Source: Dictyostelium discoideum (Eukaryota). From it: a DNA stretch of 64,000 bases. Both the position numbers and the translations under genes were made by a program. The stretch is taken from positions 4,736,001 to 4,800,000 of the forward strand of contig CM000150.2 in NCBI GenBank assembly GCA_000004695.1, read 5' to 3'. A model generated the notes under the pieces. The model had not been told where the DNA came from, made no database searches, and worked only from the letters and a program-made list of their open reading frames with translations. Position 1 is the stretch's first letter. Each line of letters opens with the position of its first letter. Shown one piece after another: positions 1 through 34,017 of this stretch.

Positions 1-1433
1 TTAGTTATTGATATAGTTAAGGGTATACAAACACAAACTGCAGAATGTATTGTTATTGGTGAAATCACTTGTAAAAAGGGTATTATAATTTTAAATAAAA
101 TCGATCAAATTCCTGTAGAATCTAGAAAAGAAAAGATTGAACAAGTATCTTCAAAATTAAGAAAAGCATTAGAAAAGACTTGTTTTAAAGATTCTTTAAT
201 TATACCATTCTCTGCAACTGGTGGTAGTAGTAGTGGTGGTGGTAGTAATTCTAATAAAATTGAACCAATTGGTATTGATTTATTAACAAAAGAATTATTA
301 AATTTTATAAATATACCAAAAAGAGAAGCAAAAGGTGATTTATTATTTGAATTTGATCATTGTTTTCAAATTAAAGGCCAAGGTACAATTTTAACTGGTA
401 CAGTTTTAAGAGGTAGCATTGAAGTGAATCAAATCATTCAAATACCACAATTAAATATTGAAAAAAAGGTTAAATCAATGCAAATGTTTCATAAACCAAT
501 TAAAAAGGCAATTCAGGGTGATCGTGTTGGTGTTTGTATAACTCAATTGGATTCATCACTCTTGGAGAGAGGTTTAGTTTGTTCAAATAATTCAATTCCA
601 CTTTTATCCTCTGCTTTAATTTCAATTGAAAAAGTTAGATTCTATAAACAACAAGTTAATTCAAAACAACAATTTCACATAACGATTGGTCATTCAACCG
701 TAATTGGTACAATTACTTTATTCTCTTCAAATATTATAGAACCTTTTAATTCAATTAAAGAATATATTTATGAAGATACTTTACATGCTACAACTATTAA
801 TACAAGCTCAAATGACAATAATACTATTAATAGTAATAATGTTGAAAATAAAGAATCATTTTATCCTGTTGGATCACAATTTGCACTTATTAAATTTGAT
901 CATCCAATATTATGTCCATTAAATAGTGTAGTGATCGGTTCAAAATTAGATGTAAATTTGGATAGTACCGGTTGCAGAATAGCTTTTCATGGTAATCTTT
1001 TAGAAGGTATAGATGATACCAATAAACAAAGTTTATTCTCAAAATTAAAAATATATAAAAACAAATCAAAGCAAGGTCAAGTTGAAAGGGTATGAATTAT
1101 TATTTATTTATTATATATTTATTTAACTTAATATAAAGATGAATATATTAATATAAATTTTTTTTTTTTTTTTTTTTAATCTAGATTCATAATGAAAATA
1201 CGATAATAGGTAAAAATTTATTTAAAAAAGATTCAGATATAAGTAGTTTTATTGGAATGAAAGTTTTATTTGAAACTGGTGAAATTGGTATCTTAGATTC
1301 ATCATTTGGTAAAACTGGAAAGGTAAAGATACAAATTCAAACTGGTAACACAGAGTCAATTAAATTAGGTACAATATTCACTTTAACCTTTAAAAGATTT
1401 ATGTATGATCAAAATAAAAAAAATAAACAATAA
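1..1433 (+). CDS. Selenocysteine-specific elongation factor (eEFSec/SelB), 3' portion. The 5' end lies outside the window. Exons 1..1089 and 1185..1433.
   Basis: Frame +1 is open from nt 1. It carries a G4 NKID motif and then a domain II segment (DHCFQIKGQGTILTGTVLRGSI, KKVKSMQMFH, QGDRVGVCITQ, LLERGLVC, KFHITIGHSTV) that matches human eEFSec almost residue for residue. ORF 424..1095 is the same frame. Donor GTATGA at 1090, acceptor ..AATCTAG at 1184, phase 0, stop TAA at 1431-1433. Confidence 0.8.
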
Positions 1434-1529
1434 TTATTGATTAAACAAATAAAATCTATTTTTAAAATCTATTTTTAATTTTTTTTTTTTTTTTTTTTTT
1501 AATTTTTTTTTAGTTTTTTTTATTATAAG

Positions 1530-1569
<40 letters not shown>

Positions 1570-1655
1570 TTATTATATATCACAAAAAATAATACTAATT
1601 TTCAATTAATATTATATTAAATTATTATTATTATTATTATTTACTATTAATTTTT

Positions 1656-4194
1656 TTAAAAGTTATTTCTTTGTTGGGGATTTTGTTGAAATTGTTGAAA
1701 ATGGGATGGAATAAAATTTTGTGATTGGTTATAATAATTTGAACCATATGCTTTGTATTGATTTGAAATGTCAGATTGTTGACCTTGTTGTTGTTGTTGT
1801 TGTTGTTGTACTTGTGGGATAGAGTTTACTTGATGATGGGTTGGGTTAAAAGTGTTTTGTTTTGGATTGGTTGGTGAACCAGCTGCTAATTGTGGACTAC
1901 CTTGATTGTTAAGTGGTTTTTGTTGTGATGGATCTTGGAAGTTGGAGTATTGTGGTTGTTGTGGTTGTTGTTGTTGTTGTGGTTGTTGTTGTTGATTTTG
2001 TTGTTGTTGTGGATAACCGTACATTCCTTTGTTGAAGTCTTGTTCTTCGGCAGAATAACCTTGTTGTGGGTGTTGTGGGTAACCACGACCAACATTCATA
2101 TGGTATGGTTTATGATAGTATGGATATTGGACTTGTTGATGATAGTAGTATGGATATTGTGGGTATTGGAATGGCATGAATGGTGCATGGTTGTTTTGTT
2201 GGAGTGGTGGTGATTGTGAACTTGGTTGATTTTGGTTGTTGGTTGGGTCTTGGTGTTGTTGGAATTTACCGTCTTGTTGAACTTGGACTTGTTGTTGTTG
2301 TTGTTGTTGTTGTCCTCTGTAGGTTGGGTTGGCATTACCACTATTTCTGAATTGCTTGTTGGCAGTGTTATCGTTAACTGGTGAAGTGGTTCTGTTGTAG
2401 TTTGGTTGATAAGAGTTATCGTAGAATTGTTGTCTAACTCTAAAGTCGTTTTCTTGATCAAAGAAGCTTGGGACTGGTACCATATATGGTTGTTGTAAGT
2501 AGTTACCATATTGTTGGTGAATGTCATTCTCTGACATCATGTGACCATCCATTGGATTCATTGATGGCATACCACCAATTTGATTTGACATCATTGGGAA
2601 AGTTTGGTAGTGTGGAATATTGTTATTAATTTGTTGATGACCATGCATTTGTTGTTGTTGGTGTTGTTGTTGTTGTTGATGTTGTTGTGGAATAACTTGT
2701 TGTTTTGGTACTTGTTGTTGAACTTGTTGTGGTTGTTGAGTAATAGCTTGTGGTTGTTGTTGAACTTGTTGTTGAACTTGTGGTTGTTGTGGAACAATTA
2801 TTGGTTGTTGTTGAATTGGTTGAACAGTTTGTTGAACAGTAGTTGATTCAATAACAACGGTTTCGGTGGTACTTTTACCAAATTGAACTTCAAAGTTTGG
2901 ATCAAATGAAACAGAGTCTGGTAAAGCGACTGGAGTGTCACCCATTTTATTGGTTTTGAATGGTTGACGATTTGGAGTGGAAGTGGTGGTAGTGGTTGAT
3001 GGGACAGCATCTTTTGGTTTCCATGCATGAGTTGTACCTGGTTTAGAACCAAAGTTTTGTCTTGGTTGTTGTGAGGTAGTGGTAGTGACTGGTGCAGTTT
3101 GTTGTTGTTGTTGTTGTTGTTGTTGTGGAACAGCAACTGGTTGTTGAACAGTTGAAGTTGAAACAGCTTGTTGAACTGGTGAACCTGGTTGTTGAACTGG
3201 GGCAGCTGGTTGTTGAACTGGGGCAACTGGTTGTTGAGCTGGGGCAGTAGCTGATTGAACTGGAGCAGCTGGTTGTTGTACTGGTACAACTGGTGCGGTT
3301 TGAGTGGTGGCAGTTTCAACGACAACAGCATTGGTTGCAGCAACTGGAGCAGTTGGTGATGGGGTTGCAGTTTCAGTGGTGGTTGGTGCAACGACAGCTG
3401 GAGTGGTTGCGGTGGCAGTAACTGGTGCAGTTGTTGTAGTGGCAACTGGTGCGACAACAGCTGATTTTGGTTGACTGGCAGCATTAATTGCTTCTAAAAA
3501 GGTTGGGGCTGAGTTGGTGGTAGTGGTTGGTTTTGTGGTGGTTGGTGCAGCAGTGGTGGTGGTAGTGTTGGTGGTAGCAGTAGTAGTTGATGGTGATGAG
3601 GTGGTGGAGGTGGTGGCAGTAGTTGGTGCAGTGATTGATGGTGATGTGGTGGCAGTGGTGGTTGGTGTAGCAGTTGATGGTGAAGTTGTAGCAGCAGTTG
3701 AAGCAGATGTAGCATTATTTGTATTTGTAGTGGTGGTAGTGGTTGGTGATGTTGTTGATGGTTGTGAAACAGTTTGAGCTTTTTGTTTGGCTGCTTCTTG
3801 TTGTTGTTTACGTTTATTTTCACTTTCTTTTAAAATTTCAACCATAGTTTTACCACCTGTAATATTAGGGTGAAGAACATTTGATTGATCTGCTGGTGAT
3901 GCTGTTGAGGCTGCTGGTACTGTAGATGGTGTAGTTGTAGTTGTGGTTGAAGATGGAATTGATTGATCGATATCTACTGGTTTTGGAGCAGTTGGTGATA
4001 ATTGTCTCTTTTGAACATGTTGATTTGGTCCTCTATTCATTGGTGAGGATCCATTTATTCTATTATTTTTAAAATTACTATTATTATTATTATTATTGTT
4101 GTTGTTGTTGTTGTTATTGTTGTTATTGTTGTTGTTGTTCATATTATTATTTGAATTTATTTTATTACGTAATTGTTCTTTATCGCCATCTAAA

Positions 4195-22926: not shown

Positions 22927-25900
22927 CTACCAATCAACATTTGATTTTGATTTTGAATCACCATTATAAATACTAATGATTGAATCAGTGGCACCAGCAC
23001 CCATTAAAATATTATAAGGATGAAAAGCGACACATGAGACAGGACCAATTCTTTGACCTAAAAAGCCATCATGATAACGAATGGTACAAACATCTTCACC
23101 AGTGAAATTCATAATTTTAATTCTTTGATTTTGAGAGCCACAAGCAATCAATGGAGCATATTCGTGGACAGAGAAAGAAGAGATGACATCATTATTGTGA
23201 ATAGTGGTTGAAGAGCATTCATAAGAATGTTGCCAAAATTTGATTTCACCTGTACTACTACCAGAGACCACTGTTTTACCACCTAAACTTGCTGGCATTG
23301 AAACGTTTACAATGTAGGATTTATGTTCGGTCAATGTTGAGACACAACTATATTTTCCAGGTATTCTTTGATCGAATAATTTCACTAAACCATCAGAGAA
23401 ACCCGCAGAGAATAAAGGACCTCTCTTTTCATTGGCCATACAAGTTACCACAGATTCCGTACCAATGAAAATATCTTGCACACCTAATTCCCTCTCGACA
23501 TCCCAAATTCTAATCTTTGGAGAGTCTGGAGTTTCACCAGAGACCAAAACCAAACCACTATCACCTTTCCAATCTAAAACGAGACGACCAATTGGATCAT
23601 TACCAGTGGTGGCAAATTCTGGAAAAGCTCTCCAACTTGAAACCATTTTCAATGTATCATTACTCTCGTAGCCTCTCCAAATTCTAACGACACCATCATC
23701 GGCGGCGGTGATAATCATTGACGGATCATAATCATTGACCAATTTCATACTTGTGATACGAGTGCCTGACATATTACAATTGTTAAAAGTATTGATACGT
23801 TGACCATCATCATAGTTCCAAACACTAATATTCTCCAAGCCATCGGAAACCACCAATATATTATCGAATGGATGAAATTGTAAATGAGAGATTGGTTGAC
23901 CATTTGGCTCGGCGAAAATGGTCATTTGTGAGAAAGATTTTGGTGGTTGTTGTATAATATTTTGAACGGCCTCTTTAGACTCTTGAATGATCATTTCATT
24001 TCTTTGACGTTTCCATTTCTTTTCAATACTTTCAAATGATTCGAAATCCTCACCAGTAGATTGCATCATTGGTTTGGAGAAGTAATTACAACTCCATTCA
24101 TAATAGTCTGAATAAAGTTCATCCTCTTCAAATGGCATTGAATCTGATACCATTAAGAAATCGTTTTGTAATGATTGACTGCTTGAATTCATTGATGAGA
24201 TTGATTGTGACATTTTATTTGTTTTATTACCACCTAATCCACTTGAAAGTGATAATGATTGAAAAGTATTTGCCAACTGATTACCTAATCCATTATTATT
24301 ATTTATATTATTATTATTACCATTACCATTATTATTTATATTATTACCATTATTATTTATACTACTATTATTATTATTATTATTATTTATATTACCATTA
24401 TTTATATTATTATTATTTAAATTTAATTGATTACCATTTAAATTTGTACCAACATTATTTGTTGATGAAGTTAAAATTGGTGATCTTTGATTTCCTAATT
24501 TTGTTTTTGTTGGGGATCTTGGATCTCTATTGGTTATACGTGATATATTTACAAATGTATTTCTAATTGAACTATTACTATTATTTAATCCAAATCCACC
24601 ACCACTACTACCTCCTAAATTATTATTACTACTATTTAAATTACTTCCATTCATACTAGCACCTAAATTACCATTACTACTATTTAAGAATCCACTACCA
24701 CTACTATTTAAACCATTCATACTACCATTTAGGTTATTAAAATTGAAATTTGTACGATTGATTAGATTATGTGACATTAATTCTTCCATAGAGAATTTTG
24801 AAGAGATTCTTTTTACAATGGATTGTGCACGATTAGCAACTTGATCGAATGGATCTGTACAAAGGTTTAGAATGATTTTCCAAAGACAACCATACACTGA
24901 TGATTGTGAACCATTACCATAGAGATCACTATTGTTATTTAAATGATCAGCATCTGATATCTTTGGTACGGATGCACGTTTCTTTGATTTTCTTGATTCC
25001 TCTAAACGTTTTGCCTCTAAAACTGCACGAAGTCTTTCCTCTTGTGCAATCTCTTGAGCGACTTGTACAAAGTTACTCTCATAGGAGGAAACGATTCTGG
25101 ATAATGATATAACCAATTCCTTTCTTACCATTGGTGAACAATCTGCAGTGATGACGGCAAGGGTGAGAGCAAGATTTAATTCGATATTAGTTCTTTGTTC
25201 ACTTCCTTCTGCACCACCAATTAACTCACCCAATGCAACGACAGCCGATGCTCTAACCTCTGGTGAGACATCTGTGAGAAGGAGACATAATTTCTCATGG
25301 GCATTCTCTTTGATTGCAGCCCATTTAGCCTCTTCAAAGTTCTCCCACATTTTTGCCATACAAAGTATCATCCATCTACGTACCATTGGATCTGGATCAT
25401 TCAATTGTGATAAACAGATGGGTAGGAGGTTACCAATGAGACATGCATTTTGTCCGGGTCTACAGTTGTTACAAATTGTCGAGAGTACAAAAGCAGACAT
25501 TGTTCTTTGATCGGCTGGAATTTGTGGTGATGATAAGACACTTATGAAATAGGCATGACCATTCTCTTTAACTAAATCCAATTGACAAGATTTATCCAAC
25601 GCCAAAATCTTGGCCCAAATAAACACCAAGATATGACGTAAATCTCCAGCTGGTGATTGTAACAATTTCAAAACATAAGGAAAGATACCAACACAAAGGG
25701 CCAAATTAACAGCCCATGGTCCAAGATCTAAAAATTTACCCAACAATACCAATGCACGTAAACGATGTGCTTGACTCAATAAAACTTGTAATACAATTGG
25801 TAATTGTGCTGGTGGATCTTTATGTTCGGAACCAAATTCCAACCAAACTTCGAATGCTGTCAATTGTTCAGTGAAAAATGGTGATGATTTAAACTCGGCA

Positions 25901-27425
25901 TTTGGATCAGCCAATAGGGTTGGTAATTGAGAGATAACCAAATCAACAGCCAAATCCCAAGCCTGCCACATTGCATGCTGATAGGTTGGTGGTAATCTTG
26001 GACAAGAGATGGGAGTGCAATTTGCCGATCTCATAATTCTCTCTGCCAAAAGATAGTTTCTGAACAATGATGCCACCAATAGATCTTGACGGAATAACTT
26101 TTGAAACAAATGTCTTGGTAATACATTCCATGCAATAGTATCGGTTACAGCAGTGAAAATCCAATTCAATTCACCCAATGGGGTTCTTCTACTACTTAAA
26201 TTACCTGGTATCTTATCGAGCATATCAGCAGTGATACCAGTCAATATTGAATGACTACAAAACCATCTCAAAGCGATTCGAATTGGTGTTGTTAAACATG
26301 CTGTAAACATATCCGCTGGGAAATCTGGATTCATTGGTAAAATTTCATTTGCACTACATGCCGCCAATAAAATACAATCACGTTGATGTGATGATGATGA
26401 ACTACTACCACTTTGATTATTATTTACACTATTACTACTACCCATATTTGGACTATTAGTATTACTATTATTACTTGAATTATTATTTGAATTATTATTA
26501 TTTTGTTGATTATTTCCATTTGTATTTCCATTTGTTGAGTTTGTAGTATTATTTTGATTATTTTGATTACTATTTTGATTATTATTTTGATTATTATTTT
26601 GATTATTACCACTAAATCTTTCTAATTCTTTATCACGTTGTTCAGCAAATTGATTAAACCAATTAATGATTAAACCTGCAGCAGAACAATCGAAAACATA
26701 AATTGATGGTGTACCCATCCAAGTTTGTAATTCATAAATTGATAGGGGAATATATTGAGTGAAATTTCTATTGAATACCCAAATCTCACCATTGGTAGTT
26801 GGTTTAGGAACACCATGACCATTGTAATGAAATAATACACGTTCATCCTTTGCATTTCTACGTAATGATAAACAAAGTTTTTTAACTTCTTCAACTGTTG
26901 GATCCAAACTTTGCTTATATCTTGCTTTCGATTGCCATTTCTCATATTGTGCCTGTAATGTCTTTCCAATCAAATCTAATGCTTTCTGTGGTGGTTGTGT
27001 AGATGGATCAAACCAACATTCCATTCTTGCACAAGGAAATGTTTTAATTACATCTGGTGGATCAACCCCAATATTTAAACATAATACTAAAGCAACACTA
27101 ACAGTTTTCATCTTTTTTTTAAAAAAAAAAAAAGTGTAAGTAATTTAAAAAAAAAAAAAGAAAAGAAAAAAAAAAAAAAAAAAAGAAAAAAAAAATTTTA
27201 AAAAACTAACCTACTCTTTCTCTCATTCTCCATTTTGCAATCTTTGTTTTTTGAACATCAGGTGTTGCATTATCTTTATGTCTTTCTTCACCAAAAAATG
27301 GTTTGTTTTTATTATTGTTGTTATTATATTTCTCTTTTTTCTTTGCTTGTTGGTGAGTATTGCTAATGTTACTAACATTGTTGTGGTTATTAACATTCTC
27401 GTTATTATTATTATTGTTATTATTA

Positions 27426-27463
<38 letters not shown>

Positions 27464-27555
27464 ATTATTTACTCCATTCACATTATTACTATTAATGCTA
27501 TTATGAAGTCCACTTGAATTTGCTAAATTCGAACTACTGAAATTATATGATTTAT

Positions 27556-27559
<4 letters not shown>
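22927..27559 (-). CDS. raptor: Raptor (regulatory-associated protein of TOR; TORC1 subunit). Exons complement(27215..27559) and complement(22927..27111); about 1509 aa.
   Basis: MKTVSVALVLCLNIGVDPPDVIKTFPCARMECWFDPSTQPPQKALDLIGKTLQAQYEKWQ..RYKQSLDPTVEEVKKLCLSLRRNAKDERVLFHYNGHGVPKPT.NGEIWVFN.N.TQYIPLSIYELQTWMG.PSIYVFDCS is nearly identical to the human Raptor N-terminal conserved (RNC) domain. HEAT/ARM and C-terminal WD40 repeats follow. The upstream exon ends ..KWRMRER (human has ..SWRMKDR) at a GTAGGT donor. The acceptor AAAAAAAAG lies directly before ATG AAA ACT. Confidence 0.85.
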
Positions 27560-27608
<49 letters not shown>

Positions 27609-28028
27609 ATTATCTTTCGGTTATCGTATGTATTATTACTAAAAATTTATTCTATAAAATTGAATCTTTAATTGTTTTTTTACTTTTTTTTTTTTTTTTA
27701 TTTTATTATTTTTTTTTTTTTTTTTAAATAACTATAGTTTTATTTTTATTTATTTGTTTATTTTTTTCACTTATTATTTTTTAAATTTAATTATTTATTT
27801 AACCACACCACACAATATGTGTGTTTTGTTTAATTTAAAATATAAATATTACACATAAATTTTAAGTTATATAAAACAAAATAAATAAAAAGAATTGGTT
27901 TTATTTTTAATTTTTATTTTTTTTACTATTTTTTGAGGGTTAAAACTATCTATAAAATTACAAAGGTATCAAAAAAAAAATAAAAAAATAAAAATCAAAA
28001 AAAAATTTTGAAAAAAAAAAAAAAAAAA

Positions 28029-28068
<40 letters not shown>

Positions 28069-28420
28069 ATTTTTTCGAATTTAATTTCATTGGAAGCATT
28101 GCTTCAAAAAAAAAAAAAAAAAAAAAAATACCAAAATAATACTAACTTCAAAATAATTTATTACTGGATCGAATATTTTCAAAAATAACATCTATTCATT
28201 ATTTTGGGGAATATTATTATTATTATTATTATTTTTATTATTTCAATTACTATCATTTTTTTAATTTCCATATTTAACACAATATTGGGAATCCCGCGCA
28301 AAAAAAAAAAAAAAAATATTAATTTTTAATTTTTTTTTTTTTATTCACCCGTTTTATTATTTTTAATTTTTTTTTTTTTAGAAGGAAAGAAGAGATTCAA
28401 ACTAATAACTTATCACAAAC

Positions 28421-29812
28421 ATGGCGGGTGAAAATTATTGCTCAGTTTGTGAAGGTATTATTAGCACAGAGAATGATTTGGCGGTTTGTTATAAATGTAA
28501 AGAAGAGATTTTCCATAAAGCGTGTGGAAAAAAAGTATTTGACTCCCTTAGATGTCTTAATTGTGGACCAATTGAAAAGGTAATTTTTTCATTCACAATA
28601 ATAAATAAATAAATAAATAAATATAAATATATATAATGTTTTTTTTTACTAATAAATAAATATAAATATATATAATGTTTTTTTTTTTTTTTTTCTTTTT
28701 TTTTTTTAAAATTAAAAATTATGTTTTTATATAAATGATAAGAGTAGAGATCATTAAGTCATCAAATAGGAGAGATATCAAAAGGTAAAGCTAAATTAGA
28801 AACAAGAACTAGTAGGTTCACAGGTATAAATGTAACTAAAGAATTTATTGAAAGTGGTGAATATGGAATAAGTAAAGGTGATGATGATGATGATGGTGAT
28901 TATGTTGGTGGTGATGATTCATCAAGCGATGATGAATACTTTGGTAATCCAACAGTCCTAAACAATTATCCAACTACTATGAATGTAATATATAAAATTA
29001 TTTCCAATATTTTTTTTTTTTTTTTTCCTGAACCCCTAAAAAAATACTTATACTAACCTTTTTTTTTTTTTTTTTTTTTTTTTGTATGTAAAAAAGAATG
29101 TTGATTTAAATTTTCCTACATTTTTTTTATTAAATGAAGATATGAAAAAACGAAAACAAAAAATAAAAGAAGATGGAAATAATGAAGAGATTAAAAAAAT
29201 TGAACAAGAAGAAAAAATGATTATTCAAGAGTATCAAAATGAAGAGATTTTAAAATTTTTTGGAGATAGGAGTTGTTTTAAACAAACTCAACTTGCATAT
29301 GAAGCAATGGTTCAATGTTTAAAAGATTTGAAAGAGTCAATTGAACGAATGTTTAAAGTTGTTAGCGTCAAAACTTTAGGTGATATTAGTAGTTTCATAT
29401 CAATGTCGTATCCTAAAAAGAGTTTATTGGATATTAGAGATATAGCATTAGAATTGATTGGTCAATCCATTGATGACAGTATCCATCATATACCAACATC
29501 AATACTTTATACAAGTTCATCATCACCAGAGGTTGCACAATTATTTCAATCGGTTCCATCCAATGTAATGATGAGAATTAAATCACATCAACCATTCAGT
29601 AGTGATATTAGTTCACATTTATGTGAACCACCAACCATAACATTAAATCCTGATTGTTGTAATACATTTAAATCAACCGTTTCAACCATTTGTCATTCAT
29701 TAACCAAAGATTATGATGTCACTAAATTCCCATCACCACATTTTGAAGATTTATCACGTTGGTATTCAAATTATTTCTCAATACCATTAATTCAAGAAGT
29801 TATTGAATTATT

Positions 29813-29903
<91 letters not shown>

Positions 29904-31412
29904 AAAGATAAATTAGAAGAAATAATGTTAGTTAGAACACCAGTTATATTGGTTATTGAAGATTTTGAAACATGGAATTCAGAGGTATTATCAGATCTTA
30001 TTCATTTACTTTCAGCATATCGTCATAGGATACCATTTGTATTATCATTTTCAATTTCAACAAGTGCTGATGCAATTCATAAAGTTTTACCCTATCAAGT
30101 GGTGTCACTATTAAATTTAAAATCACTTCATCTTCGTTCTCAAAATGAAATGTTTGAACAATTAGTAAAACATTTATTTTTAAAAAGTCAACCATATATC
30201 ATTAGTAAAAAAGCTTATTTATATTTATATTATAATTTTAAAAATTCTTATATGTCACTTTCAACAACAATATCAGTATTAAGAGTATGTATATATGCAA
30301 ATATATTACTTATTAATAAATTAAATATACTAATTTATTATTATTATTATTATTTATTATCTATTCTTATTTATATAGCATTTTATTATTGATCATTTTT
30401 TAGAGAATGGATTATCATATTTGACTTTAGATCTTTCAAATTTTCAAATTGATTTAAAAGATGATGATGATGATATGGATGGTTGTTCAACAATAAAGCT
30501 TGAACCTGAAAATGATTCAACTGATTCAACTGTTAACGATGAAGTAGGAACAGGTGATAATATTGATAATGATAATGTATCAACACATGGTGAAGAAGAT
30601 ACACCCGATAGTCTTGTCAAAAGTGATATTGAATGTCAAACATTATCATACTCAAGTGATGATGAAAGAAATGATTATGATACTTCAACAGATTCTGATA
30701 ATTGTTCTAATTTTCATAAAAAAAAACCTAATAGTAATAATAGAATTAAAAGTGATTTAGAGTGTAATGATAATGATAAGGATAATGATGATAATGATAA
30801 TGATATTAATGAAAATAATAATAATATTAATAATAATAATAATAATAATAGTAATAATGATGATAATGATAAGGATTCATTTGGACCAAAAAGAATACCA
30901 AATCAAAGATTTGTAACCTTAATTCAAAAATTACCATCTTTAAATACAGATGAAATTGAAAATTCAAAGATTTCAACAAATAGAAAACTAAATAAATTAC
31001 AAAGTAATTTAATAATATTTAAAGAGAGTAGACCAATAATGTTGGAATTATATTATACGATTCTATCGAAATTCCAAAAATCAAAAACATTGAAATATTC
31101 AGAACTACTCAAGAAAATATCATTAAATGATAGAAAATCATATGAAACATTAAGAAAGACAATTTTAACAAATCCAGAATCCAAACAATCAATTGAAACA
31201 TTATTAGATTTGTTGAAAACCTCAAGACATCACTTCGAAAGAATTATCAAAGCCACCAATAGTTTAAAATTATTCCAAACACCAAAGAGCAAAAAGTATC
31301 AGGATTTAGTGAAAATTGAAAATCTAATTTTAAAATGTAGAACTTTGTCAAATAATTTTAAAAATCTATTATTACCTCCAGATGAACAATCAAAATCTAT
31401 TAAAAATGAAAT

Positions 31413-31482
<70 letters not shown>

Positions 31483-31668
31483 AAAATTGAAAATGAACAA
31501 AAAAATTGGAGCATTAAAAAGAAAAGAGAACATCAACTTCGAAATATTCAAAAACCAACAGATTCTTATTTTAAAATTTATTCAAGAGAATTTTTAGATG
31601 ATATAGTTTCTGTTATTATAGAGTAAAATTTTTTATTTTTATTTTTTTTAATTTATTTATTATTTTTA

Positions 31669-31703
<35 letters not shown>

Positions 31704-32286
31704 TTCAATTTTAGGGATTATTTATATCCTCCATTAGTTTCAGTGCCCTTATCAGAAATATTTGATTTTACCCAAACAGTATTCATTACCCAAAGTAGAT
31801 TCAATTTCCATACAGCAGAAGGAATTAACGATAATTTAATACATTCAGTAAGAAAATTAAAATGTGAATGCTGTATTGATTCTCTTTGTGGTACTATGGA
31901 TGATTTTTCAATTTCGTTTGTACCATTTTATTTTATTTTATTTTTATTTTATTTTTTTATACAAATTTGTATTTAATACTAATAATAATATTTTTAAAAA
32001 ATAGTTTTATTTTATTATTAAGAAGTGGTAGATATATTAATTATTTTGATTGGTTAACTTCATTTTGTTCAATTATAAATGGAGATAATAATCCAACTCC
32101 TAATCTAAAGTAAGTATTTTTTATTTTTTTTTTTATTTTAATTTTTTTTTATATATATATATTTTTTTTTTCTTTAACTCACCATTTTTTTATTTTTTTA
32201 TTAGGGCAAGATTTATAAAATCAGTCGATACATTTGTAAGTTTGGAATTAATTAAAAAAACTAGGAAAAGAAAAGATCATTTTGAA
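28421..32286 (+). CDS. orcC: Origin recognition complex subunit 3 (ORC3), 7-exon model. Two 5' exons are tentatively included: 28421..28579 (PHD-type C4HC3 zinc finger) and 28748..28984 (acidic linker). Core exons 29097..30284, 30379..31622, 31715..31915, 32005..32109 and 32205..32286.
   Basis: Core: ..PVILVIEDFETWNSEVLSDLIHLLSAYRHRIPFVLSFSISTSADAIHKVLPYQVVSLLNL matches the human ORC3 segment PVVLILKDMESF..VLQDFIII.S.HLHEFPLILIFGIATSP.IIHRLLPHAVSSLL. The C-terminal exons give ..RSGRYINYFDWLTSFCSIINGDNNPTPNLK|ARFIKSVDTFVSLELIKKTRKRKDHF*, which matches the human ORC3 tail CGRLINLVDWSEAFATVV...[29 protein letters not shown]. Donors are GTATGT (30285), GA|GTAAAA (31623), TC|GTTTGT (31916) and AA|GGTAAGT (32110). 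The exon at 29097 has an acceptor AAAAAG in phase 0. The two 5' exons (donors AAG|GTAATT at 28580 and AAT|GTAATA at 28985, all phase 0) are joined only on phase and donor/acceptor consistency. Confidence 0.65.
29815..29893 (+). repeat. (CAA)n tract of about 26 units, encoding polyQ inside ORC3 exon 3.
   Basis: Uninterrupted CAACAACAA run, translated as Q32 in ORF 29082..30392. Confidence 0.9.
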
Positions 32287-32680
32287 AAAATTGCTTTCTT
32301 AACTACATCATAAAAATAATTATAAATAAAAATAAAACATTTATTTATTAAATATTTTTAAATAAATATAAAAATCAATTTTGGTTTAAATTGGAAATGA
32401 GTGTCATTTTATTTTTTTGATCAACCCCCACACCCATTGCGGACAATATTCCTATTTTTTTTGTTTTTTATTTTTTTATTTATTTTTTTTTTTTATTTTT
32501 TTTTTTTATTTTTGTATTTTATTTTTTAATTTTTTTTTTTTTTAATTTTTTTTTTAATTTTCAAATTTTATGTTCAAAAAACAAATTTTTCCATTTATTA
32601 TTTTATTGTTTTCTTTTTTTATTTACTATTATAACAATAAAAATAATAATAATTTAACAAAAGAAGAAGGTTTATTTAAA

Positions 32681-32900
32681 ATGGATCCATCATCATTATC
32701 AAATCCACAAGAATGCAAAGTTACTTCATTAAATTTAGTATTATCAGTAAACTTTGAAAAATCACAATTACAAGGTTATGTTGAAGTTGCCTCACAAATT
32801 GTTAAAGAAGGTACTGAAAGTTTAATTTTAGATACTAATCAATTAGAAATCTCTCATTGTAATGATGTTACTTCAAATCCAATTAATGTAAGTTTATATA

Positions 32901-32941
<41 letters not shown>

Positions 32942-34017
32942 ATTATTATTATATGTATGTGTGTTAATTACTTACTCTTTTTTACTTTTTACTTTTTTTT
33001 TTTTTTTATTTTTTGTTTTTTTCTTGTTTTATTTTTAGTTCAAACTTTCAGAAGAACATAAAGTTTTTGGTAAAGCATTAATCATTTCAATTCCAGAAGG
33101 TTTAAGATCAGTTGGTAAAGAATTCATTGTTAGAGTTTATTATAATACCACTGTTGATTCAAATGCATTACAATGGTTAACTAAGGATCAAACTGCTGGT
33201 AAATTACACCCATACCTTTTCTCACAATGTCAAGCGTAAGTGTTTTTTTTTTTTTTTTTAAAAAAAATGGATTGGATTGGAAGTGGGGAAAATTGAAGGA
33301 AAAAAAAAAAAAAAAAAGGAATAGTAAACTAATTCATAATATTTTTTTATAGTATTCATGCAAGATCATTAGTCCCATGTCAAGATAGCCCAAGTAATAA
33401 AGTTAAATATCAAGCTGAAATCACAGTTCCAAAACCATTAACTGCTTTAATGAGTGCTTTATCAACTGGTAAAACTGAATCAACTGATTCAAGTGTTTTC
33501 ACTTTTACTCAAGAAATTCCAATCCCAGTAAGTTTTTTTTTTTTTCAAAAAAAATACCAAATTAATTACTAATTATTAATTTTTAATTTTTAATTATTTT
33601 TTTAGACTTATTTAATTGCAATTGTTGTTGGTGATTTAGAATCAAGAGTAATTGGACCAAGATCAAAAGTATGGTCAGAACCATCAATGGTCGCAGCAGC
33701 TGAATATGAATTCGCAAACACAGAGAAGTTCATTGCTGTTGGTGAAGATTTATTAACTCCATACGTTTGGGGTAGATATGATATTCTTTTACTTCCACCA
33801 TCATTCCCATATGGCGGTATGGAGTAAGTTTTTTTTTTTTTTCATTTTTTTTTTTTTACCAAACCAAATTTTAATACTGACATTTTTTTTTTTTCTTTTT
33901 TAATATTTAAAATATAGAAATCCACTTTTAACTTTTGTTACTCCAACTTTATTAGCTGGTGATCGTTCATTAGAAGGTGTTGTTGCTCATGAAATTGCGT
34001 TTGTATTAATATTAATT

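Follow-up and report, generated by a model that had tools for sequence, protein, structure and literature searches.

Origin recognition complex (ORC) subunits have acquired lineage-specific modules that decide replication start, such as the BAH domain of Orc1, the PHD finger of plant ORC1 and the AT-hooks of fission-yeast Orc4. The last of these form an N-terminal extension made up of basic DNA-binding peptides, and are a lineage-specific N-terminal module on a subunit other than Orc1, in an organism with AT-rich origins. In plants, a lineage-specific finger with a C4HC3 pattern of zinc ligands occurs in the BAH-PHD arrangement of ORC1 (Arabidopsis ORC1a/b; PMC7058166 and references therein), where it is a recognised PHD finger with known binding to the histone H3 tail. 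In an evolutionary survey of ORC, the only PHD fingers mentioned are those on ORC1 in green plants and algae, and a search of the accessible literature found no description of a zinc finger on Orc3, only that of the plant ORC1 finger. The present study concerns a very AT-rich 64,000-nt stretch of Dictyostelium discoideum DNA (assembly GCA_000004695.1, contig CM000150.2, positions 4,736,001 to 4,800,000 of the forward strand; hereafter the window), in which nt 28421-32313 (+) very probably constitute a single seven-exon ORC3 gene of the orcC type. Its 1080-aa product would carry a dictyostelid zinc finger and an acidic linker at the N-terminus, possibly as a tether, ahead of the canonical Orc3 protein.

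The finger shares with that of plant ORC1 its C4HC3 pattern and its presence on an ORC subunit, and the plant protein serves as a model for chromatin tethering, but the two are on different subunits and at different positions, and the window finger fails the PHD models (see below). Compared with the AT-hooks of fission-yeast Orc4, the module in the window consists of a Cys-rich finger and, after it, an acidic tract, a composition that speaks against simple DNA binding. If confirmed, it would add another lineage-specific module to ORC, in an organism that is genetically tractable, whose genome is very AT-rich and whose origin specification is poorly understood.

Proposed structure of the ORC3 gene

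A preliminary description of this DNA had proposed that two small open frames (the first encoding a PHD-type finger, the second acidic) are spliced in phase 0 onto an ORC3-homologous exon, or else that they form a small finger gene of their own. The evidence for the fusion comes from the sequence of the window and from comparison with relatives, and gives the following gene model.

27560-28420 (no strand): spacer, AT-rich (13% G+C), between the divergent Raptor-like gene and the finger ATG, delimited from the open reading frame (ORF) list and composition
28421-28579 (+): exon 1, 159 nt, 53 codons, with the start codon and the C4HC3 zinc finger; phase-0 end AAG/GTAATT
28580-28747 (+): intron 1, 168 nt, 7.7% G+C, GTAATT...GAGTAG, TACTAAT at 28647; phase-0 intron at the corresponding place in Polysphondylium violaceum
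28748-28984 (+): exon 2, 237 nt, 79 codons, linker with R-x-T-G, D-rich acidic tract and N-Y motif; phase 0 at both ends (GAGTAG/ ... AAT/GTAATA)
28985-29096 (+): intron 2, 112 nt, 15% G+C, GTAATA...TACTAAC (29051-29057)...T25...AAAAAG
29097-30284 (+): exon 3, where the canonical Orc3 region begins (first part of ORC3_N), with a CAA-encoded polyglutamine (polyQ) tract at 29815-29903
30285-30378 (+): intron 3, 94 nt, GTATGT...ATATAG, TACTAAT at 30328; no counterpart in the P. violaceum gene
30379-31622 (+): exon 4, end of ORC3_N, long D/N-rich low-complexity insert, helical middle region and second polyQ tract; phase-2 end
31623-31714 (+): intron 4, 92 nt, GTAAAA...TTTTAG; phase 2, shared with its P. 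violaceum counterpart
31715-31915 (+): exon 5, 201 nt, where the C-terminal winged-helix region begins (PLSEIF motif); P. violaceum counterpart 204 nt
31916-32004 (+): intron 5, 89 nt, GTTTGT...AAATAG, TACTAAT at 31977
32005-32109 (+): exon 6, 105 nt, winged helix (INYFDWLTSFCS motif)
32110-32204 (+): intron 6, 95 nt, GTAAGT...TATTAG
32205-32313 (+): exon 7, 109 nt, C-terminal end of Orc3; TAA stop at 32311-32313, followed by AATAAA-rich sequence

The seven exons (3243 bases, with 650 bases of intron) join to a protein of 1080 aa, whose first exon translates as MAGENYCSVCEGIISTENDLAVCYKCKEEIFHKACGKKVFDSLRCLNCGPIEK. That the two small 5' exons belong to the ORC3 gene, and that translation starts at 28421, is strongly supported by the sequence comparisons given below. 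This placement of the start codon, outside exon 3, corrects any gene model that starts inside exon 3.

The borders originally proposed were recovered: exon 1 runs from 28421 to its phase-0 donor at 28579, exon 2 is in phase 0 at both ends and contains the acidic peptide quoted for it, reading through its donor yields exactly the peptide that had been given (stop at 29054-29056), and position 29097 follows an acceptor, AAAAAG/, with TACTAAC and a 25-nt T run before it.

From exon 3 onward the protein is clearly Orc3, as judged by its sequence matches. The Pfam ORC3_N model (PF07034) scores 213.2 bits against a cut-off of 25 (E=8.4e-63), its match starting at residue 29 of exon 3, and the ORC winged-helix model ORC_WH_C (PF18137) scores 37.6 bits against a cut-off of 26.4; a profile search aligns the latter region to the C-terminus of Drosophila Orc3. 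Among solved structures, the Drosophila ORC3 chain 4XGC_C was matched with E=7e-13 by the single sequence and 1.5e-41 by a two-sequence profile, and the human chain 5UJ8_A with 4e-11 and 7e-34, respectively. The AAA+-like ORC3_N region and the C-terminal winged helix thus align significantly with animal Orc3 (Drosophila 4XGC_C, 7JGR_C; human 5UJ8_A, 7CTE_C). The solved chains, however, align only from about residue 280 of the window protein, and nothing in them matches the first 132 residues. All of these alignments start a long way past residue 132, and the finger and acidic region are therefore an addition at the N-terminus, outside the portion that animal Orc3 shares; this agrees with the preliminary description, which regarded animal ORC3 as lacking such a domain.

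The polyQ and D/N-rich inserts are likewise features of the window protein and not of animal Orc3. Two perfect or near-perfect CAA repeats (29815-29903 and 31415-31482) encode the polyQ tracts, the first lying inside the ORC3_N region, and the D/N-rich low-complexity insert occupies approximately 30460-30890. The P. violaceum ORC3 has no polyQ, and has a different acidic/Ser-rich insert at the corresponding place.

Conservation in other dictyostelids

The N-terminal 372 residues were compared exhaustively with 1.84 billion representative proteins. The sole meaningful match was the ORC3 of P. violaceum (KAF2073041.1, UniRef100_A0A8J4PTG8; 1075 aa), which is named origin recognition complex subunit 3 in UniRef. 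Its N-terminus reads ...CVSCNGYYEQKEYSRCRTCRSIIHRQKCNINFVCMPCC..., followed by a poly-Asp tract and then Orc3, and its finger has the pattern C-x2-C-x11-C-x2-C-x4-H-x3-C-x5-C-x2-C. The fused architecture is already present, uncommented, in at least one public annotation, that of P. violaceum. A second match, a 700-aa repeat protein (P0002), covered only the Lys/Glu-rich stretch 123-194 and was dropped as compositional. Three word-indexed homology searches, using the N-terminal 372 aa, the full two-sequence alignment and a low-complexity-trimmed alignment, gave no match; the last two, which reached a ceiling of 8000 candidates, missed even the P. violaceum ORC3, so these blanks are not evidence of absence.

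Mapping the P. violaceum protein back onto its own contig gave an exon structure that can be set beside that of the window:

Finger exon: 189 nt (63 codons) in P. violaceum, 159 nt in the window; a phase-0 intron follows in both
Acidic exon: 234 nt (78 codons) in P. violaceum, 237 nt in the window; phase 0 at both ends, a phase-0 intron follows in both
Third-last exon: 204 nt in P. violaceum, 201 nt in the window
Second-last exon: 99 nt in P. violaceum, 105 nt in the window
Last exon to stop: 97 nt in P. violaceum, 109 nt in the window
Last three intron phases: 2, 2, 2 in P. violaceum and in the window

The P. violaceum gene has five introns. The window has one more (30285-30378), which by this comparison has been gained or lost within Dictyostelia. 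Comparison with ORC3 gene models of related dictyostelids had been proposed in the preliminary description as a check on the fusion; in P. violaceum it returns the same layout of finger, acidic region and ORC3, with the same two phase-0 introns.

A scan of metagenomes added a JGI contig, Ga0256895_1004807 (3367 bp), with an uninterrupted ORF of 1085 codons (83-3340) that starts MTIMRRNNKEPVEKEDFSNLEAKDCVSCKGFYDTKQFRRCVACRNTIHKDCHIKLYCIPCCC... and continues with an acidic tract and a complete Orc3. This ORF is 64% identical to the P. violaceum protein end to end. Against the window model it gives one BLASTP segment (25-537 against 7-545, E=2e-36), which begins at the first finger Cys and crosses both proposed junctions. 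A second contig from another sample, Ga0256900_1005717 (3357 bp), encodes an identical protein. The two are gene-sized, both start upstream of the finger with 5' ends 3 nt apart, and both end 17-27 nt past the stop in an AATAAA-rich tail; their only two mismatches are at the extreme end of the shorter contig, where additional A residues follow. Being uninterrupted where the closest genomic relative has five introns, the two contigs are most plausibly assembled mRNAs of a related dictyostelid. Should they instead be genomic, the three parts would be directly contiguous in that species, and in either case a relative has finger, linker and Orc3 in a single reading frame.

In a three-way alignment of the window, P. 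violaceum and environmental proteins, all seven Cys are found in every sequence and the His varies by no more than one position, with an overall identity of only 22-30%. All three share the order of C4HC3 finger, acidic linker and Orc3. The relatives differ from the window in having 15-18 extra residues before the first Cys and 5 residues rather than 9 in the last finger loop, and in lacking the third intron of the window gene. In the linker, the three sequences have in common R-x-T-G and N-Y motifs as well as the acidic tract. A further motif, R-S-x-S-x-Q (protein residues 54-59; 28748-28765), runs from the first codon of exon 2, directly past the exon 1/2 junction; the environmental ORF has it unbroken (RSDSTQ) and P. 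violaceum keeps it in part. Located just after the finger, it could be a phosphorylation site of a basophilic kinase.

Coding and splicing signals

Exons 1 and 2 have a G+C content of 35% and 32%, against 8-15% in the flanking introns and 13% upstream. When their bases were shuffled, the frames stayed open in 0.6% (exon 1) and 0.02% (exon 2) of trials, and for both exons the proposed frame had the best codon-usage score among the six, near that of ORC3 exon 3. Exon 1 has 7 Cys in its 53 residues whereas the other 1027 residues of the protein have 16. That the two exons are chance open frames in intergenic DNA, for which nothing but their small size speaks, can be set aside as virtually impossible in view of the shuffling, composition and coding scores, and is effectively refuted by the conservation of the Cys, His and linker motifs in two orthologues.

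Both proposed introns match in their signals the four downstream introns, whose positions are fixed by homology. The six spacers are alike in starting with GT and ending with AG, in length (89-168 nt) and in G+C (3-15%), and the two proposed junctions, GTAATT...TAG and GTAATA...AAG, are canonical splice signals in phase 0. The branch-point-like motif TACTAAY is present on the sense strand of four of the six introns (28647, 29051, 30328, 31977), including both proposed ones, and is missing altogether from the exons (3243 bases); at the density seen over the window as a whole, 650 bases of intron should contain 0.17 copies (Poisson P ~3e-5). Intron 2 has the order donor, TACTAAC, 25-nt T run, AG, and no AATAAA was found in its 112 nt.

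Intron 1 contains a perfect tandem duplication of 39 bp (1.9 copies, 28612-28686; the unit ends TTTACT). Its greater length (168 nt, compared with 89-112 nt for the other five introns) is partly due to this recent duplication.

The start of ORC3

The alternative raised in the preliminary description, a small finger gene made up of exons 1 and 2, would have a product of about 155 aa and leave ORC3 to begin independently at the ATG at 29142. It draws on two features of the window. Translation past the exon 2 donor meets a stop after 23 codons (29054-29056), and exon 3 has an in-frame ATG at codon 16 with the Pfam ORC3_N match starting only at residue 29. The ATG (GATATGA) also weakens the earlier statement that exon 3 has none in a good context. 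Only 85 nt, however, separate that stop from the ATG, and this interval has no AATAAA and does have TACTAAC, T25 and AG. The comparative evidence is also adverse: P. violaceum keeps the three-part layout with matching phases and exon sizes, two environmental contigs have all three parts in one ORF, and the exon 3 residues before Met16 align with the orthologues (NVDLNFP versus KYY(I/L)YIP). The 155-aa product is itself absent from the protein collection searched. A separate gene is accordingly highly improbable.

A further possibility is that both forms exist, a long finger-bearing mRNA and a shorter ORC3 arising at an internal start site or through initiation at Met148, with the finger optional and regulated. 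The ATG at 29142 has a purine at -3, and a protein started there would retain all of the ORC3 detected by Pfam. Nothing speaks positively for a short form; both environmental contigs begin upstream of the finger, intron 2 is short and intron-shaped, and the two-form arrangement is considered unlikely.

The single fused gene remains the preferred interpretation, and the joining of the small exons onto ORC3 originally proposed is borne out by the P. violaceum layout, the single environmental ORF and the likeness of the introns to those downstream. Several observations nevertheless weigh against it. The in-frame ATG at 29142 lies upstream of the Pfam-detected part and would allow a shorter, finger-less isoform. 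The gene model of P. violaceum is a computational prediction, and the transcript nature of the environmental contigs is judged from contig shape and not from sample metadata. The 1080-aa fusion has no exact match in the protein collection searched; exact look-ups of the 933-aa ORC3 from Met148 and the 63-aa exon 1 read-through were also negative, as was that of the 155-aa product, and close relatives of the 1080-aa protein appear to be missing from the collection as well. The curated D. discoideum model probably has the fused architecture too, and its UniProt entry, probably of about 1080 aa, would match the present model.

Class of the finger

The ligands of the finger are C7-x2-C10-x12-C23-x2-C26-x5-H32-x2-C35-x9-C45-x2-C48. 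The preliminary description had given this C4HC3 order and the other spacings correctly, but had 10 residues in place of 9 in the last loop. The order, with its CxxC, CxxC, HxxC and CxxC pairs, is found in the window and in both orthologues, and by this layout the domain resembles interleaved two-zinc fingers while not being a recognisable member of the PHD family. It is best described, on sequence grounds, as an unclassified, dictyostelid-specific C4HC3 zinc finger of the PHD/C1/RING superclass.

The attraction of a genuine PHD finger is that it would read histone H3 tails and give ORC3 the chromatin-reading role of the plant ORC1 PHD finger. The C4HC3 order and the ligand pairs agree with this, as does the canonical C-x4-H-x2-C spacing of the environmental orthologue. 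Several features do not. PHD fingers have C-x4-H-x2-C and, ahead of the last Cys pair, a loop of some 12 residues or more; the window has x5-H-x2 and a loop of 9, P. violaceum x4-H-x3 and a loop of 5, and the environmental protein x4-H-x2 and a loop of 5. Among the orthologues, the His is displaced by one residue. The aromatic position of PHD fingers, a Trp two residues before the seventh ligand, is occupied by Leu, Phe and Leu in the three fingers. None of the Pfam PHD-family models (PF00628 and related) was listed for the three fingers at E<=10, a relaxed threshold at which most matches above ~0.1 were filtered, and the best match of the profile to solved structures was the C1 domain of protein kinase C delta (2YUU_A), at a non-significant E=0.015. 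Membership of the PHD family is thus rather unlikely, and of the original designation the C4HC3 pattern stands as a fair description while the Pfam match, loop length and Trp position all fail.

Other classes were considered and rejected. C1 domains follow H-x12-C-x2-C-x13/14-C-x2-C-x4-H-x2-C-x7-C with an N-terminal His ligand. A local core, C-x2-C-x11-13-C-x2-C-x4-H-x2-C, is common to the finger, to C1 domains (2YUU_A; ARHGEF2, 9H1O_C) and to other two-zinc treble-clef fingers such as PHD and RING, and another C1 domain was at rank 4 of the profile search. The window finger, however, lacks the N-terminal His and has a C-terminal CxxC pair in place of the single last Cys. No His is present upstream of the first Cys in any of the three sequences, and the C1_1 model (PF00130) reached ~14 bits in two of the three fingers (E ~0.05), below its cut-off of 26.5. 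In RING fingers a single residue separates the second pair of ligands (C-x-H or C-x-C), while here this pair is C-x2-C, which argues against both RING and RING-CH. The RING models were also below their cut-offs, Prok-RING_1 (window finger only) with 20 bits against 29.1 and zf-RING_Vps41 with 13 bits against 30.3. The finger belongs to no Pfam family.

A single-sequence search of solved structures with the finger gave nothing significant. AlphaFold2 models of the window and P. violaceum fingers, each computed with the other as its aligned sequence, were of low confidence (mean predicted local distance difference test scores of 57 and 44).

Possible role of the finger and linker

Expression of the proposed gene would proceed from a transcription start within the AT-rich spacer that it shares with its divergent Raptor-like neighbour. 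After removal of the phase-0 introns 28580-28747 and 28985-29096, translation from the ATG at 28421 would place a finger of ~48 residues and a linker of ~80 residues ahead of canonical Orc3, with its ORC3_N AAA+-like region, insert and C-terminal winged helix. The finger would be expected to bind two zinc ions and, together with the linker, may form a flexible N-terminal tether outside the ORC core. By analogy with the modules described above, this tether would most likely bind a chromatin component or partner protein, and so target or regulate ORC. The adjacent acidic tract argues against plain DNA binding, and would fit histone binding or an autoinhibitory role.

That this previously undescribed module reads chromatin directly, at a histone tail or the surface of the nucleosome, or else brings in a regulatory partner, is put forward tentatively, and on present grounds is rather doubtful. 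If true, part of the chromatin targeting of ORC would reside on Orc3 rather than on the BAH domain of Orc1. More speculative still is a RING-like action of the finger that would connect ORC3 with ubiquitylation, a link that in human cells is provided by a separate E3 ligase, OBI1.

Flanking sequences and neighbouring genes

The spacer at 27560-28420 is presumed from its position and composition to be a shared promoter and 5' untranslated region (UTR). It contains a sense-strand TACTAAC at 28140-28146, approximately 280 nt upstream of the start codon, and a lone GC-rich island, GGGAATCCCGCGC, at 28288-28300 in an upstream region of otherwise 13% G+C. These could be the marks of a 5'-UTR intron or of a promoter element. 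A scan for bacterial-type promoters and terminators gave counts at chance level, and is irrelevant to a eukaryote.

Divergent from ORC3 on its upstream side is a Raptor-like gene (22927-27559, -), which consists of a 1394-aa ORF and an upstream N-rich exon-like ORF at 27206-27559. A Raptor gene also lies upstream of ORC3 in P. violaceum (L001, 1-2801, +), where it is on the same strand as ORC3, so that the neighbourhood is conserved but its orientation is not. P. violaceum has in addition a tRNA-Ala gene (AGC; L001, 4682-4755, -) about 250 bp upstream of the ORC3 start codon; ARAGORN found no tRNA genes in the 64-kb window.

On the downstream side, the next same-strand ORF (32570-33061, +) begins 256 nt past the ORC3 stop, over double the 112 nt that separate exon 2 from exon 3. 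This 256-nt interval is the only same-strand gene-to-gene spacer noted in the window.

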